The notes under the pieces are model-generated. The model did no database searches. It was not told where the DNA came from and was given only the letters and a program-made list of their open reading frames with translations. The position numbers and the translations under genes were made by a program. A DNA stretch of 64,000 nucleotides from Candidatus Hodarchaeaceae archaeon. Its GTDB lineage: Archaea > Hadarchaeota > Hadarchaeia > Hadarchaeales > Hadarchaeaceae. The stretch spans positions 4,883 through 68,882 of the forward strand of contig JASEJC010000001.1 of assembly GCA_030016755.1 (NCBI GenBank), read 5' to 3'. Below are positions 11,434-17,705 of the stretch, one piece after another. Position 1 is the first letter of the stretch, and every line of letters starts with the position of its first letter.

Positions 11434-12072
11434 ATGAAGAAAGGCGAACGGGTTCTGCGCGAGATCCTATACCGCTTTCACGAGCGCAATGAGCGGTTCA
11501 TGAGCCAAAAGGCGCTGGCGGAGGCTTGCGGACTTTCCCTTGGCACGGTCAACCCAATCGTGCGCAGGCTAGAACAGCTTGGCGCCATCGAGAAGAAACC
11601 CCTAGGATTTAGGGTCAGCGATGTGACGCGCATCCTGCTGTACTGGGCCAGCAAGAGGAACTTGGCTAAGGATATAGTCTATAGCACCAGCACTTCCCTC
11701 TCAGCAGCAAATATTGAGAAGGACCTGCCCCAAGGCTCGGTTATGACTGCCTATTCTGGTTTCAATGCTAGATTTGGTGAAGTGCCGATAGACTATCAAG
11801 AAGTTTATGTGTATGCAGACCCGGCTGAGCTGAAGCGAAGGTTCCCCCGCGCGCGAGGCCGTTTGAATAACCTCATCGTGCTGAAGCCAGATGAACACCT
11901 CATTCGACTCAGCGAGGGAGGTATTGCCCCCCTAGCCCAGATTTACGTTGACCTGTGGCAACTTGGTGATCCGGCAAAAAAACTCGTCGATGAACTCGGC
12001 GCGCGGATGCGGGCAGGGGAGATAGGTGCGCTTCAGGGGATTATTAAAAGGACCCGGGAGCGGCCCGGATAA
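11434..12072 (+). CDS. Winged-helix DNA-binding protein (putative transcriptional regulator) with an uncharacterised C-terminal domain
   Basis: The HTH region reads 'SQKALAEACGLSLGTVNPIVRRLEQLGAIEK'. The start was chosen at the internal Met of 'MKKGERV'. The gene converges on the 3' end of the hydrogenase operon. Confidence 0.45.
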   Translation: MKKGERVLREILYRFHERNERFMSQKALAEACGLSLGTVNPIVRRLEQLGAIEKKPLGFRVSDVTRILLYWASKRNLAKDIVYSTSTSLSAANIEKDLPQGSVMTAYSGFNARFGEVPIDYQEVYVYADPAELKRRFPRARGRLNNLIVLKPDEHLIRLSEGGIAPLAQIYVDLWQLGDPAKKLVDELGARMRAGEIGALQGIIKRTRERPG

Positions 12073-12940
12073 TCGACTTCTCAAGCTTTAGGAGCAGAGC
12101 CTTTGCGCCCTCCAAGTTTGCCGTTTTACCCCTACACCGCGAACACGCTGCTGCTGCACGCTCGATATCTTTGCGGAAGCTCTCGTATGGTTTTGCCGCC
12201 TCAATTATCCTGTTCACAAGTGCCCGGATTTGCTTTGCCGGCACTTCAAATGTGCCACAGAAGGGGCACCCTGCCAACTCCTCAACGGCGCTGACCCTCA
12301 TTAAGGCCCGGTCTGGTCCCGATGGGTGCCGCTTCTTGACCAGGCGAACCGCATCCTCTGGGCAAACCTCCTCACAGCTGGCGCAACTGATGCACTTATC
12401 GTACATGAATTTCACCGTTCGCTTGTTGCCCTCGTCCGCCAGCTCTATCGCGGATGTTGGGCATGCCTTTTCACATGCGCCGCAGCCCGTACACTTCTCT
12501 GAATCAAGCTCGGGCTGCCCCCTGAAACCCTTGGGGGCCAGCCAGCGTCTGTACTTGACACCCATGGTCCGAGCTACCCCCTCCCCTATCGCCTGGGGAC
12601 TGGGTGGGCAACCAAGGACATACAAATTAACCGGGATGAACTTGTCCGTTGGTTCAAGAGCACTGTACGATTTCTGGAAAATCCCGCTTGATAGAGCACA
12701 CGTACCAACTGCAATCACGGTTTTGGGTTCCCTGAGCTTGTTGTAAACTTCCTTGAGGGGTCCCGCCATTTTTGCGCTGACGACTCCAACAACGAGGAGC
12801 ATATTCGCTTTCTCGGGCTCGTCCACTATTCTCGCTTTGAGATTTCCAATACCGAACCTCTCAGCCAGTGCACACACTACCTCGATGTCGCAGCCATTGC
12901 AGGAGCCAACGTTCAGGCGGTAAACTCCTATCTCGCTCAC
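12044..12940 (-). CDS. [NiFe]-hydrogenase small subunit (NuoB/EchC-like) fused to a 2x[4Fe-4S] ferredoxin (NuoI/EchF-like) domain and a C-terminal Cys4 zinc-ribbon-like extension
   Basis: The N-terminus has the NuoB-type proximal-cluster motif 'GSCNGCDIE' plus 'GTCA', and 'GCPP'. The middle has 'CTGCGACEKACP' and 'CISCASCEEVCP'. The C-terminus reads 'CPFCG...CSRCRG'. A GTG start follows GGTTGAGG, 8 nt after the tnpB-like stop. Confidence 0.75.
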   Translation of the reverse strand: MSEIGVYRLNVGSCNGCDIEVVCALAERFGIGNLKARIVDEPEKANMLLVVGVVSAKMAGPLKEVYNKLREPKTVIAVGTCALSSGIFQKSYSALEPTDKFIPVNLYVLGCPPSPQAIGEGVARTMGVKYRRWLAPKGFRGQPELDSEKCTGCGACEKACPTSAIELADEGNKRTVKFMYDKCISCASCEEVCPEDAVRLVKKRHPSGPDRALMRVSAVEELAGCPFCGTFEVPAKQIRALVNRIIEAAKPYESFRKDIERAAAACSRCRGKTANLEGAKALLLKLEKSIIRAAPGSF

Positions 12941-12951
12941 CTCAACCCGTC

Positions 12952-15595: not shown

Positions 15596-16495
15596 TTACC
15601 CAATCCTCGCAGCCAGTTGGGAGACTGGGCTTCGATGAAACTCTAACGACAGCTCCTTTGCAGGTACACTAAAGGCGAGGGCTAGAAGCTCAGCTAAGTG
15701 TAGACATGGGACCGAAAACTTTTCGCCGTATCTTCTGAGGTCAAGCTGCCCTGATTCAAACTGAACGTTGCATGCGGGACACACCACCGTGACGCCATCG
15801 ACCCCCACGTGTTGATAGCACTTCAGCTTAGGGAGGAGGTTGTGCTTCAGCGAAAACTCTTTATCTACTTGGGATGTCGGAAAACCGCAACACATCTGAT
15901 CTAAATCACAGCGGATGACCTCAGCCCCCGTCGCGCGCACTAGCTCCTCGAACTGCCTTGGCTTCCTCCAGATGTCTCCACCGTCTTCCTCCCTGAAGAG
16001 GTGACAACCGTAGTGTACCGCTAGCTTCAGGTTAAGCGGTTTCTTGACCCGCTCCTTTATCGCTTCGACTCCGACATCCTCATGGAGAACCTCTACAATG
16101 TGCCTGACCTTTATTGTCCCCCCGTACTTCCTCCCCACCTTGGTCAAGAGCTCATTGATCTCGCCGGCAGTTTCCTCCTGTTTCATGGCTTCGTTGGCCT
16201 CCCACAGTGTCTCAAAACAGCCGTTGCACAGCACCACAACATCGAGGCCCTGTTTCTCCGCTATGCTCAAGTTCCTAGCCGATAGGGAGAGCGCGACCTT
16301 CCTATCCATCAGGCGTGCCAAGATTGGGTCCGGGCAACATGTGTAGCCCGACATGTCCGCGATCTCGAGCCCAAGCGAACTGAAAACTTTGCGTGTGGCC
16401 AGTTCAGCGCTGGGGAGCCGCTGGGGTATCAAACAACCCAAGAAAAGAGCATATTTTTTCACTTTTTCGTCCCCCTCAATTTCTTCCGCTCCCAA
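15596..16495 (-). CDS. HdrB-like subunit with two CCG domains (heterodisulfide reductase B / GlcF-like)
   Basis: There are two Cys-rich CCG modules: 'C..CCPDP..CNGC' and 'C..CCGFP..CPAC'. Confidence 0.7.
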   Translation of the reverse strand: MGAEEIEGDEKVKKYALFLGCLIPQRLPSAELATRKVFSSLGLEIADMSGYTCCPDPILARLMDRKVALSLSARNLSIAEKQGLDVVVLCNGCFETLWEANEAMKQEETAGEINELLTKVGRKYGGTIKVRHIVEVLHEDVGVEAIKERVKKPLNLKLAVHYGCHLFREEDGGDIWRKPRQFEELVRATGAEVIRCDLDQMCCGFPTSQVDKEFSLKHNLLPKLKCYQHVGVDGVTVVCPACNVQFESGQLDLRRYGEKFSVPCLHLAELLALAFSVPAKELSLEFHRSPVSQLAARIG

Positions 16496-17130
16496 TCGTA
16501 GCCGACCCGCTCGCTGAAACTCGTCTGCTTGATTAGCTCGTGAACCTCTTTCAGCTGGGGCTCGCTCGAGTAACTTGCGGGGGGTTGGGGAGGTAGCCCC
16601 GCCTCCACGCGCCTGCGCTCAACCAAGGGAGTTATGGGCGCAGTGGCACCGACGGTTGTAATAGCCTCAGCTACGGGGGTGATTTCATCTGGCACTGGGG
16701 GCTTGAAGGGCTTGCCCAGCGGGAAACTGCCCTCCGGCCACTCGTCTTGTAACACCAAATGCCTCGGCTCGGGATGGTCCCTGAATTTCGCCCCGCAAAG
16801 CTCGGCTGCCTCCTTCTCCGCCCATTCCGCCGCCGGAGTCAGGCCGACTATGCTATCGATTTCAGGGTTCTCCTTCGCCAACCTTGTTTTCAGCACCACG
16901 ACCCTACCCGTTAAATCGAAGTGGTAAAGCAACTCGATATCCAACCCCACATCGATGGCTGCGATGATTATGAACCGTGCCCCCCCACCAAGCAGGCTCT
17001 CGGTGGCCTTTCTTATCGCCCCAGGTGTTATCTCCGCCCAAACCTTGCGTTCTCGAGGCGTGGACGCGTTCAGAAGTTCGTCCCCGAGGTTTTCCTTCAG
17101 GAGTTTAACTATTGCGTTTTCCTCCACCAT
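16459..17130 (-). CDS. NuoC-like (30-kDa subunit family) hydrogenase subunit
   Basis: 'EWAEKEAAELCGAKFRDHPEPRHLVLQDEWPEG' matches the NuoC/EchD signature. The start was chosen at the internal ATG whose A overlaps the upstream TAA stop (TAATG at 17128-17132), which indicates translational coupling. Confidence 0.7.
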   Translation of the reverse strand: MVEENAIVKLLKENLGDELLNASTPRERKVWAEITPGAIRKATESLLGGGARFIIIAAIDVGLDIELLYHFDLTGRVVVLKTRLAKENPEIDSIVGLTPAAEWAEKEAAELCGAKFRDHPEPRHLVLQDEWPEGSFPLGKPFKPPVPDEITPVAEAITTVGATAPITPLVERRRVEAGLPPQPPASYSSEPQLKEVHELIKQTSFSERVGYDWERKKLRGTKK

Positions 17131-17705
17131 TACACCTCCTTTAGATATCGACTTCGCATGAACTCTGACGCTTCGGCGCGGGTGCCAACCCTGATCGCTT
17201 GAGGGGAGCAGTACTTGGCGCACTGAGGGTCGCCGTCGCAGAAGTTACACTTGGTTGCGACGCGGTGCTCCTCGTCGAACCATGCTGCGGCAAGGGGGCA
17301 GGCGTAGATGCAGGAGCGGCAACCGGTGCACTTCATCGGGTTTATTGCCACCCATCCCGTGCGCTCGTCCCTAGTAATTGCGTCCTCCGGGCAGGCGGCA
17401 ACGCACACCGGGTTCTCGCAGTGTAAACAGTTGTTCGCTTCACGCACAAACTTCTGATCGTCGATGAAAACATGAATATGGGATTTCTCCGGGTTGAGGG
17501 TGCCGAAGTTTCTGTGGGCGCACGCGATCTCACAATACCGGCAACCCGTGCACCGTTCCGCATCGTAGATAAGCACGAGCTGCTCCTCCTTAGACTTCTC
17601 CAAGAGGGTCGCCTCTTTTGCCGAAAGGGGGCTGATGCGCTTAAGGCTTTCGTTTCTTGCCACCCAAGCTGCGTTCGAAAATTTCCTCGCCCGGTTTCCA
17701 CCCAA
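17130..17705 (-). CDS. Polyferredoxin with four [4Fe-4S]-type Cys motifs (HycB/HdrC-like electron-transfer subunit)
   Basis: The motifs are 'CTGCRYCEIAC', 'CLHCENPVCVAACP', 'CTGCRSCIYACP' and 'CNFCDGDPQCAKYCSP'. An alternative TTG start at about 17603 would remove the overlap with the upstream gene. Confidence 0.75.
   Translation of the reverse strand: MGGNRARKFSNAAWVARNESLKRISPLSAKEATLLEKSKEEQLVLIYDAERCTGCRYCEIACAHRNFGTLNPEKSHIHVFIDDQKFVREANNCLHCENPVCVAACPEDAITRDERTGWVAINPMKCTGCRSCIYACPLAAAWFDEEHRVATKCNFCDGDPQCAKYCSPQAIRVGTRAEASEFMRSRYLKEV

Follow-up and report, generated by a model that had tools for sequence, protein, structure and literature searches.

A candidate soluble, HdrB-associated group-4 [NiFe] hydrogenase module in Hadarchaeia- and Bathyarchaeia-like archaea

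Group-4 [NiFe] hydrogenases are defined by, and have been studied for, their coupling to transmembrane ion translocation and their kinship with complex I. What, then, is encoded by a gene cluster that brings together the catalytic parts of such an enzyme and no membrane part? This question is raised by a 64,000-nucleotide stretch of the archaeal contig JASEJC010000001.1 (positions 4,883 to 68,882; hereafter the window), on whose minus strand, at 12044-17705, a gene for a group-4 [NiFe] large subunit is linked to genes for complex-I-like partners, a four-cluster ferredoxin and a homologue of HdrB of the heterodisulfide reductases. We propose that this locus specifies a membrane-subunit-free, soluble, five-subunit HdrB-associated group-4 hydrogenase functioning as an H2:disulfide oxidoreductase, and we put the probability of this reading at roughly 0.6. 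An earlier interpretation of the same DNA, made from its letters and translated open reading frames (ORFs) and referred to here as the sequence-only reading, had likewise arrived at a cytoplasmic, non-bifurcating H2:disulfide oxidoreductase, which it viewed as an Ech-like module of uncommon architecture.

Composition and recurrence of the module

All six minus-strand ORFs of the sequence-only reading, with the domain content it ascribed to them, were recovered when domains were assigned by Pfam and NCBIfam and structural relatives by matches to PDB chains; five of them (12044-17603) make up the proposed enzyme (Table 1). The signs of tight coupling that it had pointed to are likewise real, namely the TAATG overlap at 17132-17128, directly preceded by AGGAGGTG, and the abutting stop and start of the HdrB and large subunit genes at 15596/15595. 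The mechanical ORF of the ferredoxin continues as far as 17705, into the upstream IF-2B gene; its true start is likely 17603 (157 aa), as taken from the gene calls on the 99%-identical contigs L010 and L011. The HdrB gene probably starts with the GTG at 16462, which overlaps the NuoC stop as GTGA, the alternative being a TTG at 16495. The closest database protein, at 99% identity, is labelled Hadesarchaea.

For comparison, we assembled 49 loci from a metagenome scan seeded with an alignment of the NuoC-like subunit and its C-terminal tail, added loci fetched via large-subunit homologues, and annotated them with our own ORF and BLASTP pipeline. The same five genes (ferredoxin, NuoC with tail, HdrB, large subunit and fused small subunit) are found in the same order in 37 loci, 10 of them Hadarchaeia-like and 27 Bathyarchaeia-like; as the order recurs in 37 independent loci, the module is not a product of chance. 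The Hadarchaeia-like loci keep the synteny of the window, with S-adenosylmethionine synthetase, TGT, AsnC and IF-2B genes upstream, and NikR and HD protein genes downstream. The large subunits of the module form one clade in a neighbour-joining (NJ) tree (bootstrap 54/60). In an exhaustive search of representatives clustered at 50% identity, this clade corresponds to a single representative (464 bits), the next one scoring 345 bits at 47% identity; the names of the top representatives include Bathyarchaeota, Methanoregula and Desulfaltia and no Methanocella. A scan of genome contigs with a single large-subunit sequence returned only three distant (30%) loci of Hydrogenothermaceae. One large subunit of the survey (P0017, in locus L008) carries the NCBI label 'Candidatus Hodarchaeaceae' (Asgard), while its contig has Hadarchaeia-like synteny over more than 10 genes, and its label or binning looks doubtful.

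The large subunit is of the NuoD type: NuoD-type models score 259-296 bits, as against 37 bits, over the N-terminus only, for VhuA, and the best PDB matches are to Escherichia coli HycE (7z0s_E, E 1.9e-64) and Pyrococcus furiosus MbhL (6cfw_L, E 3.9e-63). These matches support its placement in group 4 (complex-I-like) and not among the 3c/Mvh-like enzymes, a known soluble group to which the sequence-only reading had taken it not to belong. Both CxxC nickel motifs, RVCGLCSQAH and DRCISCTNR, are intact, as that reading had stated, with CGLC and CISC aligned with those of the relatives. The further group-4 features of the module are a NuoB-type domain (PF01058), a NuoC-like protein (PF00329) and matches to HycF/NuoI models. 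The large subunit also has a HycE-type C-terminal extension, the CTNR-VTVVDERTGRSRRV of the window aligning to the CTDR-MTVVDVRKKKSKVV of HycE, which implies proteolytic maturation of the HycI type. It fits this extension that a gene for a HycI-type protease, along with hyp genes, occurs near the module in relatives, as seen on looking through the related loci for hyp and membrane genes. No hyp or hycI gene was found in the 64-kb window. Here, the ParA/Mrp-like gene at 9246-10091 was considered as an archaeal ATPase-type HypB and rejected, because the HypA-linked gene of the Hadarchaeales locus L001 is not its orthologue. Among the group-4 large subunits retrieved, P0168 and P0198 (~936 aa) harbor an intein with a LAGLIDADG homing endonuclease near the N-terminal nickel-binding region; a reading of the two as NuoC-HdrB-large-subunit fusions was discarded, both being intein-containing large subunits.

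The HdrB homologue, whose gene is embedded between the NuoC-like and large subunit genes as in the colinear HdrB-associated group-4 systems, contains the two CCG domains noted by the sequence-only reading and matches the HdrB chains of the PDB over its full length (8rvu_b/5odc_B, E ~4e-71, residues 14-296). It keeps the equivalents of E87 and H154, which have been named as proton-path residues in the HdrB of M. maripaludis (PMC13518236). Against the TIGR03288 HdrB model it scores 276 bits; since the equivalog cutoff is 345, specificity for CoM-S-S-CoB is not established by this match.

A second trace of a heterodisulfide reductase is found in the NuoC-like subunit. Its C-terminal extension of ~75 aa (about 16462-16690), which is not seen in ordinary NuoC, is homologous to the C-terminal segment of HdrC: the protein matches the HdrC model TIGR03290 of NCBIfam over residues 181-239, the tail matches HdrC chains of the PDB with E about 1e-4, and a profile of the 37 NuoC tails searched against the whole PDB recovers HdrC chains only (5odc_C residues 107-183, E 1.9e-11). 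The tail goes together with HdrB, being present in the window clade, in the membrane-linked loci L043 and L066 and, weakly, in L061, and was not found in the NuoC of the HdrB-less clusters L001-Mbh, L062, L064 and L065. The matched HdrC segment, we assume, is the one that packs against HdrB in the HdrABC structure, and the HdrC-derived tail of the NuoC-like subunit probably tethers HdrB.

The small subunit is a fusion in which a NuoB/HycG-like domain with the ligands of the proximal cluster (C14, C17, C81 and C111) is followed by a HycF/NuoI-like 2x[4Fe-4S] domain (C150-C193) and a Cys4 site (C225, C228, C266 and C269), all 16 of its Cys residues being invariant across 29 sequences. What the sequence-only reading had regarded as an extra C-terminal CxxC...CxxC module is this Cys4 site, which has a counterpart in HycF: in hhalign, a profile built from the 29 fused sequences matches E. 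coli HycF with 99.7% probability (E 2.6e-26), and the four residues fall on HycF C117, C120, C155 and C158. In the electron cryo-microscopy structure of formate hydrogenlyase (FHL), these residues bind a single metal ion beside HycB and the docking surface of FdhF (PMC9474812). The ferredoxin of the window, in turn, is 35% identical to E. coli HycB. Thus, the label Ech-like does not suit the module, whose ferredoxin, HycF-like domain and HycE-type C-terminal extension are all of the Hyc/FHL type.

The TnpB gene, which the sequence-only reading had counted as an operon member, is on comparison with the related loci an insertion sequence (IS) of the compact IS200/IS605 type that breaks the synteny. 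The protein matches NF040570 with 102.6 bits (cutoff 100), along with Cas12f1-like_TNB and PF07282, and a 5-bp direct repeat, TGAGG, borders the element on either side (14471-14475 and 12940-12944). Excision of the 1526-bp insert gives ...CTGAGGTGAGCG..., in which the TGA stop of the large subunit overlaps the GTG start of the small subunit; the final six codons of the large subunit gene (GVVAAT), which lie within the C-terminal extension, stem from the insertion. TnpB is found in none of the 37 related loci, in which the genes of the large and small subunits, wherever both are present, overlap or are directly adjacent. Two contigs from 99%-identical organisms stop 6-32 nt inside the element, as commonly happens when a repeat interrupts an assembly; no other TnpB copies were detected in the window or the fetched loci. 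One may ask whether the insertion functionally compromises the operon in this genome, given that 1.5 kb were placed exactly at a formerly overlapping stop/start junction and that the element is common to the window and a 99%-identical metagenome-assembled genome (MAG). We consider this unlikely, however, because all five enzyme ORFs, including the two that flank the element, are intact, the six added residues sit in an extension that is normally removed by HycI-type maturation, the small subunit retains its GTG start with a GAGG just upstream, and TnpB has the orientation of the operon, so that read-through is possible.

Table 1. Genes of the proposed hydrogenase and the element inserted among them (window positions)
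Feature	Positions	Strand	Domains and remarks
HycB-like ferredoxin, four [4Fe-4S] motifs, 157 aa	17130..17603	-	Fer4_11, HybA/DmsB/HydN family
NuoC-like subunit, 223 aa, with HdrC-like C-terminal extension	16459..17130	-	Complex1_30kDa
HdrB homologue, two complete CCG motifs, 288 aa from GTG	15596..16462	-	PF02754 twice
Group-4 [NiFe] large subunit	14450..15595	-	Complex1_49kDa (PF00346, 212 bits) and NiFeSe_Hases (PF00374)
TnpB-only IS element, 1526 bp	12945..14470	-	TnpB ORF 12952-14412; not part of the enzyme
Fused NuoB~HycF-like small subunit, 298 aa	12044..12940	-	Oxidored_q6, 2x[4Fe-4S] domain and C-terminal CxxC...CxxC

Membrane subunits and related hydrogenases

The membrane arm of group-4 enzymes, comprising a NuoH-like anchor and one or more antiporter-like (NuoL/Mrp) subunits, is missing from the window module. 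A hydropathy scan predicts no transmembrane (TM) segment in any of the five subunits, and no NuoH-, NuoL- or Mrp-like gene (NADHdh, Proton_antipo) is present in the 64-kb window, where the ORFs with at least five predicted TM segments belong, as checked, to the A-type ATPase, SecDF and a Na/H exchanger. The operon is bounded inside the window by the IF-2B-family gene upstream and a convergent helix-turn-helix gene downstream, and no membrane subunit lies just outside it; the claim of the sequence-only reading that membrane subunits are lacking has thus stood up. The same is true of the relatives, none of the 37 loci having a homologue of NuoH or NuoL within the module or next to it; the same-strand membrane ORFs beside it code for a ZIP transporter, MgtC-family proteins or small unknown proteins.

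Two features of the proteins themselves are consistent with a lost membrane interface. The segment G-[FY]-[DE]-T-x-F-M-x-x-W is kept in most of 63 other group-4 large subunits and is remodelled in essentially all 39 of the window clade. The HycF-like domain, moreover, begins at model position 26 and is consequently devoid of the N-terminal amphipathic helix of NuoI-type proteins, which is said to be a feature of every structure in the complex-I superfamily (PMC9474812). A truncated N-terminus of the NuoB-like domain was also considered as evidence of solubility and rejected, since the Mbh-type NuoB of L001 is only 8 residues longer.

HdrB has been linked to group-4 hydrogenases before. The 'modular HdrB-interacting [NiFe] hydrogenases' include Ehd of Methanomethylicia, Ehe of Culexarchaeia, Drh of Methanocellales and Ehg of Nezhaarchaeia (Kohtz 2022, PMC9723716); Ehd was first noted by Borrel 2019, and an 'Ehd-like' group takes in sequences of Bathyarchaeia (PMC9723716). 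Ehg is expressed in a cultured Methanonezhaarchaeon (PMC12700198), and an hdrB2 gene lies inside the reduced 'fpo' operon of one Bathyarchaeia family (Qi 2021). All four of the named types have been treated as membrane-bound, Ehd, Ehe and Ehg having an antiporter-like subunit, and Drh being without an antiporter subunit and possibly passing electrons directly from H2 to CoM-S-S-CoB (PMC9723716). The Drh cluster of M. conradii (Mtc_0479-0486), which is up-regulated in syntrophic co-culture and putatively membrane-associated, encodes a 4Fe-4S ferredoxin, HdrB-3, a putative transmembrane protein, an EchE-like protein, an EchB-like transmembrane protein, an EchF-like and an EhaN-like protein (PMC6046458).

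The window module resembles Drh ('disulfide-reducing hydrogenase', Ech-Hdr-like, from Methanocella; Lyu & Lu 2015) in having hdrB inside a group-4-type [NiFe] cluster and, by the published annotation, in a colinear core of genes for a 4Fe-4S ferredoxin, HdrB, an EchE-like large subunit, and EchF-like and small subunits; for Drh, too, a direct H2:disulfide reduction without antiporter coupling was proposed. Unlike Drh, it has neither an EchB-like (NuoH-type) TM subunit nor the putative transmembrane protein, and its NuoB and HycF-like proteins are fused. With Ehd, Ehe and the 'Ehd-like' group it shares the [NiFe] group-4 core joined to HdrB, as predicted from genomes. In our literature search, the coverage of which is incomplete, we found no explicit report of a version without any membrane subunit. 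The contention of the sequence-only reading that the architecture is an uncommon one can therefore be kept in part: the pairing of HdrB with a group-4 hydrogenase was already described from genomes as Drh, Ehd, Ehe and Ehg, and only the complete lack of membrane subunits appears to be new. As judged from the genes, the novelty would thus be a membrane-free, NuoB~HycF-fused form with a large-subunit clade of its own, within the genome-predicted HdrB-linked group-4 hydrogenases.

The loci related to the clade include both membrane-linked and apparently soluble forms. Two, of the Ehd/Ehe type by architecture only, share with the window the gene order and the fusion of NuoC with the HdrC-like tail, and differ in having antiporter-like and NuoH-like subunits and separate NuoI-like and NuoB genes. 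The complete one (L066) reads ferredoxin, antiporter-like protein, NuoC with tail, HdrB, large subunit, NuoH-like, NuoI-like and NuoB; the other (L043) has a NuoL-like protein (651 aa, Proton_antipo_M) in the second position and reaches the contig end after the NuoI-like gene. Both are colinear with the window module except for the two membrane genes and the order and fusion of NuoI and NuoB, and their large subunits, 43-46% identical to that of the window, fall outside the window clade in the NJ tree, in which the deep nodes are weakly supported. The nearest outgroup (L061:3-4102, 47% identity) encodes NuoC with tail, HdrB, a large subunit without the C-terminal extension and a fused small subunit, followed downstream by two small proteins with 2-3 TM segments, one with a weak MbhD/Oxidored_q3 match, and then the contig end. 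A second apparently membrane-free group-4-like hydrogenase was found at L062:7263-10025, on a 1.08-Mb contig (JGI Ga0373629_0000001); it comprises a 158-aa unknown protein, an 87-aa NuoC-like protein, a large subunit (44% identity to that of the window), a 235-aa NuoB~ferredoxin fusion and a small HypA-like ORF, with no HdrB and no NuoH or NuoL nearby. As the soluble HdrB module sits among membrane-linked forms, its origin by loss of the membrane arm would be the simpler reading, although the deep NJ nodes are weak.

This kinship also bears on the possibility that the five proteins dock in trans on NuoH-like and Mrp/antiporter-like subunits encoded elsewhere, to form an ion-translocating enzyme like that proposed for Ehd and Ehe. 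The energy coupling of such an arrangement would make thermodynamic sense; colinear membrane-bound versions exist in L043 and L066, the two small TM proteins lie directly downstream of the module in L061, and in L001 the module adjoins a full Mbh-type cluster. Yet, the complete lack of NuoH and NuoL homologues in or beside the module among the 37 loci, the clade-wide remodelling of an otherwise conserved segment of the large subunit and the removal of the NuoI-type amphipathic helix by the NuoB~HycF fusion all speak against it, and the Mbh cluster of L001 has a NuoB, NuoC, NuoD and NuoI of its own, with two opposite-strand genes between it and the module. We therefore give docking in trans only a small chance. 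The L001 locus itself (L001:1-5352 and 13310-15685, from a Hadarchaeales MAG) has the module ~1.4 kb from a complete Mbh/Mrp-type group-4 cluster, and genes for HypA, for an ATPase of the ParA/Mrp type that may be an archaeal HypB and for HycI are also near.

Proposed reaction, precedents and alternatives

The most economical, and in our view most likely, reading of these genes is a cytoplasmic H2:disulfide oxidoreductase, in which an FHL-like peripheral arm would bear an HdrB disulfide reductase in the place of the formate dehydrogenase FdhF. H2 would be cleaved at the [NiFe] site in the large subunit, and the electrons would be handed to the proximal [4Fe-4S] cluster in the NuoB-like domain, onward via the two clusters of the fused HycF-like domain, then through the four clusters of the HycB-like ferredoxin and finally to HdrB, at whose two non-cubane clusters a disulfide R-S-S-R' would be reduced to two thiols. 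HdrB would be held on the complex by the HdrC-derived tail of the NuoC-like subunit. Since the module has neither a NuoH-like anchor nor an antiporter-like subunit, no ion translocation would be coupled to the reaction, which with a low-potential disulfide could run reversibly. The union of the five proteins in one complex, the order of the clusters and the direction of the reaction are all inferred from the genes.

There is a precedent for the free-standing arm, in that the peripheral arm of E. coli FHL separates during purification as a soluble complex without HycC and HycD (PMC9474812), which makes such an arm physically plausible. The resemblance to FHL (Hyd-3, group 4a; 7Z0S) extends over the HycB-like four-cluster ferredoxin, the HycF-like domain with its Cys4 metal site, the HycG/NuoB-like domain with the proximal cluster and the HycE-like large subunit with a cleavable C-terminal extension. 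The window module differs from FHL in being without FdhF, HycC and HycD, in having HycE split into NuoC-like and NuoD-like genes, in the addition of HdrB and the HdrC tail, and in the joining of the NuoB-like part to the HycF-like one; the operon and the neighbouring genes scanned showed neither a molybdopterin enzyme nor a membrane subunit. With the MvhADG-HdrABC complex it has in common a soluble H2 oxidation coupled to an HdrB site, the full-length HdrB match and the retention of the C-terminal segment of HdrC. Against this, Mvh is of group 3c and the window enzyme of group 4, and the latter is without the flavoprotein HdrA, MvhD, the ferredoxin domain of HdrC and an evident site of bifurcation. 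The same net reaction as proposed here, from H2 and heterodisulfide to thiols without bifurcation, is carried out by Vht/Vho-HdrDE of Methanosarcina, which differs in being membrane-bound and energy-conserving and in using a group-1 hydrogenase, methanophenazine and cytochrome b.

The comparison with MvhADG-HdrABC suggests an alternative, in which the module would supply the hydrogenase and HdrB to a larger assembly that carries out flavin-based electron bifurcation and includes HdrA and an MvhD/FlpD-like protein, the HycB-like ferredoxin acting as the connector. Within 10 kb of the module, the Bathyarchaeia-like loci do encode HdrA-like (7/27) and FlpD-like (6/27) proteins as well as extra copies of HdrB, and a direct route to HdrB would not strictly need as much wire as the four clusters of the ferredoxin provide. 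However, in none of the loci is an HdrA or FlpD gene inside the operon, and neither gene is found in the 10 Hadarchaeia-like loci or the 64-kb window, where tblastn gives ferredoxin-domain matches only; furthermore, the HdrB gene is part of the hydrogenase operon, and its product would be tethered via the NuoC fusion, not via an HdrC that contacts HdrA. We accordingly hold such an assembly to be improbable. The qualifier non-bifurcating of the sequence-only reading is thus plausible from the lack of HdrA in the operon, and is made less secure by the HdrA/FlpD genes that are often near the module in Bathyarchaeia.

Which disulfide is reduced is a separate matter. The CCG subunit could act on a protein-bound dithiol/disulfide or on a sulfur carrier, the candidates including lipoyl-GcvH-like proteins and TusA/DsrE persulfides, in which case the enzyme would be reversible and work near equilibrium. 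In the Bathyarchaeia-like loci, genes for GcvH-like proteins (7/27) and for TusA and DsrE (5/27) occur within 10 kb of the module, and a GcvH gene lies inside the Ehe cluster of Culexarchaeia, for which the authors suggested such a protein substrate (PMC9723716). The window, for its part, has genes for GcvPA and GcvPB and part of one for GcvH (60746-63999), from which it follows that the organism has a lipoyl carrier protein. With a lipoyl disulfide at about -290 mV, which is near the H+/H2 couple at about 10 Pa H2 by our own estimate, energy coupling would not be needed. Nevertheless, the HdrB homologue is close to the HdrB of methanogens (E 4e-71) and keeps the proton-path residues; in the Hadarchaeia-like loci, genes for GcvH, TusA and DsrE are not adjacent to the module; and the gcv genes of the window, at a distance of 43 kb from the hydrogenase, have the appearance of an ordinary glycine cleavage system. 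On balance, action on such a carrier seems doubtful to us, albeit with an appreciable chance. Only tentatively, and as a minority possibility of somewhat greater weight, do we entertain a broader formulation, namely that of a reversible, uncoupled, peripheral-arm-only H2:protein-disulfide oxidoreductase, acting for example on a lipoyl-GcvH-like carrier, which is conserved across Hadarchaeia and Bathyarchaeia and would constitute a new functional subgroup of hydrogenases.

Several points weigh against the soluble H2:disulfide oxidoreductase that we favor. By our own estimate, the uncoupled reduction by H2 of a heterodisulfide at ~-140 mV (CoM-S-S-CoB) dissipates about 50 kJ/mol; such waste would be odd in subsurface archaea that are short of energy, and it points either to a substrate of low potential or to a partner that has gone unseen. 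The ferredoxin, with its four clusters, could be there for a second partner encoded at another locus, expression of the small subunit may suffer from the TnpB insertion in this genome, and the module of L001 lies ~1.4 kb from a complete hydrogenase cluster of the Mbh/Mrp type.

Genomic surroundings and implications

Directly upstream of the module, on the same strand, is the gene for an IF-2B-family protein (of the ribose-1,5-bisphosphate or methylthioribose-1-phosphate isomerase type; 17641-18624), which holds this place in 7/10 Hadarchaeia-like loci. In five of these loci a small FeS_assembly_P (DUF59) gene intervenes between it and the module; the window has no DUF59 gene. A NikR-type nickel-responsive regulator (8094-8522, minus strand in the window), with an HD-domain gene after it, recurs a few kb downstream of the module in the Hadarchaeia-like loci, and a gene for a ZIP-family metal transporter comes directly after the small subunit gene in L009, L015 and L018 (coordinates in relatives: L008:13069-13512; L009:14680-15081; L009:12021-12746). 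A link of the NikR and ZIP neighbours with nickel supply is possible.

In Bathyarchaeia-like loci (L003:4611-6941 and 14349-21128; L020; L025; L042), the module is surrounded by genes for hypCDF, TusA, a sulfur transporter, DsrE/DsrE/DsrH and a GcvH-like protein, and the same loci feature large HdrA-FlpD arrays with extra copies of HdrB; this neighbourhood resembles those of sulfur-relay or sHdr-type systems.

Farther off in the window, the gcv genes on the minus strand are resolved into a GcvPB-like (60746-62251), a GcvPA-like (62476-63864) and, at the window edge, a partial GcvH-like ORF (63877-63999). The genes for the A-type ATP synthase are arranged divergently, D, C, E, K and I occupying 37915-43187 of the minus strand and A and B 43335-46764 of the plus strand. 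A 2118-aa ORF on the minus strand (30101-36457) combines a Peptidase_C25 domain with bacterial Ig-like domains; the region 34001-38000 is low in GC (0.43-0.47, as against about 0.55 elsewhere in the window), and the region of this ORF may be a foreign or surface-protein island.

If the proposed enzyme is what the genes suggest, it would be relevant to the cycling of hydrogen and of thiols and disulfides in Hadarchaeia and Bathyarchaeia, which have been described as widespread in the subsurface and in sediments. The fusion of NuoC with the HdrC tail provides a docking hypothesis for all HdrB-associated hydrogenases, and a soluble module is a potentially tractable route to the first biochemistry or structure of an HdrB-linked group-4 enzyme. 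A conserved lineage that has the whole redox arm and is without the membrane genes would test how far the two arms of these enzymes can be separated. Should the soluble, peripheral-arm-only reading be true, the module would be a living example of a catalytic arm that exists, or has been shed, apart from the ion-pumping arm.

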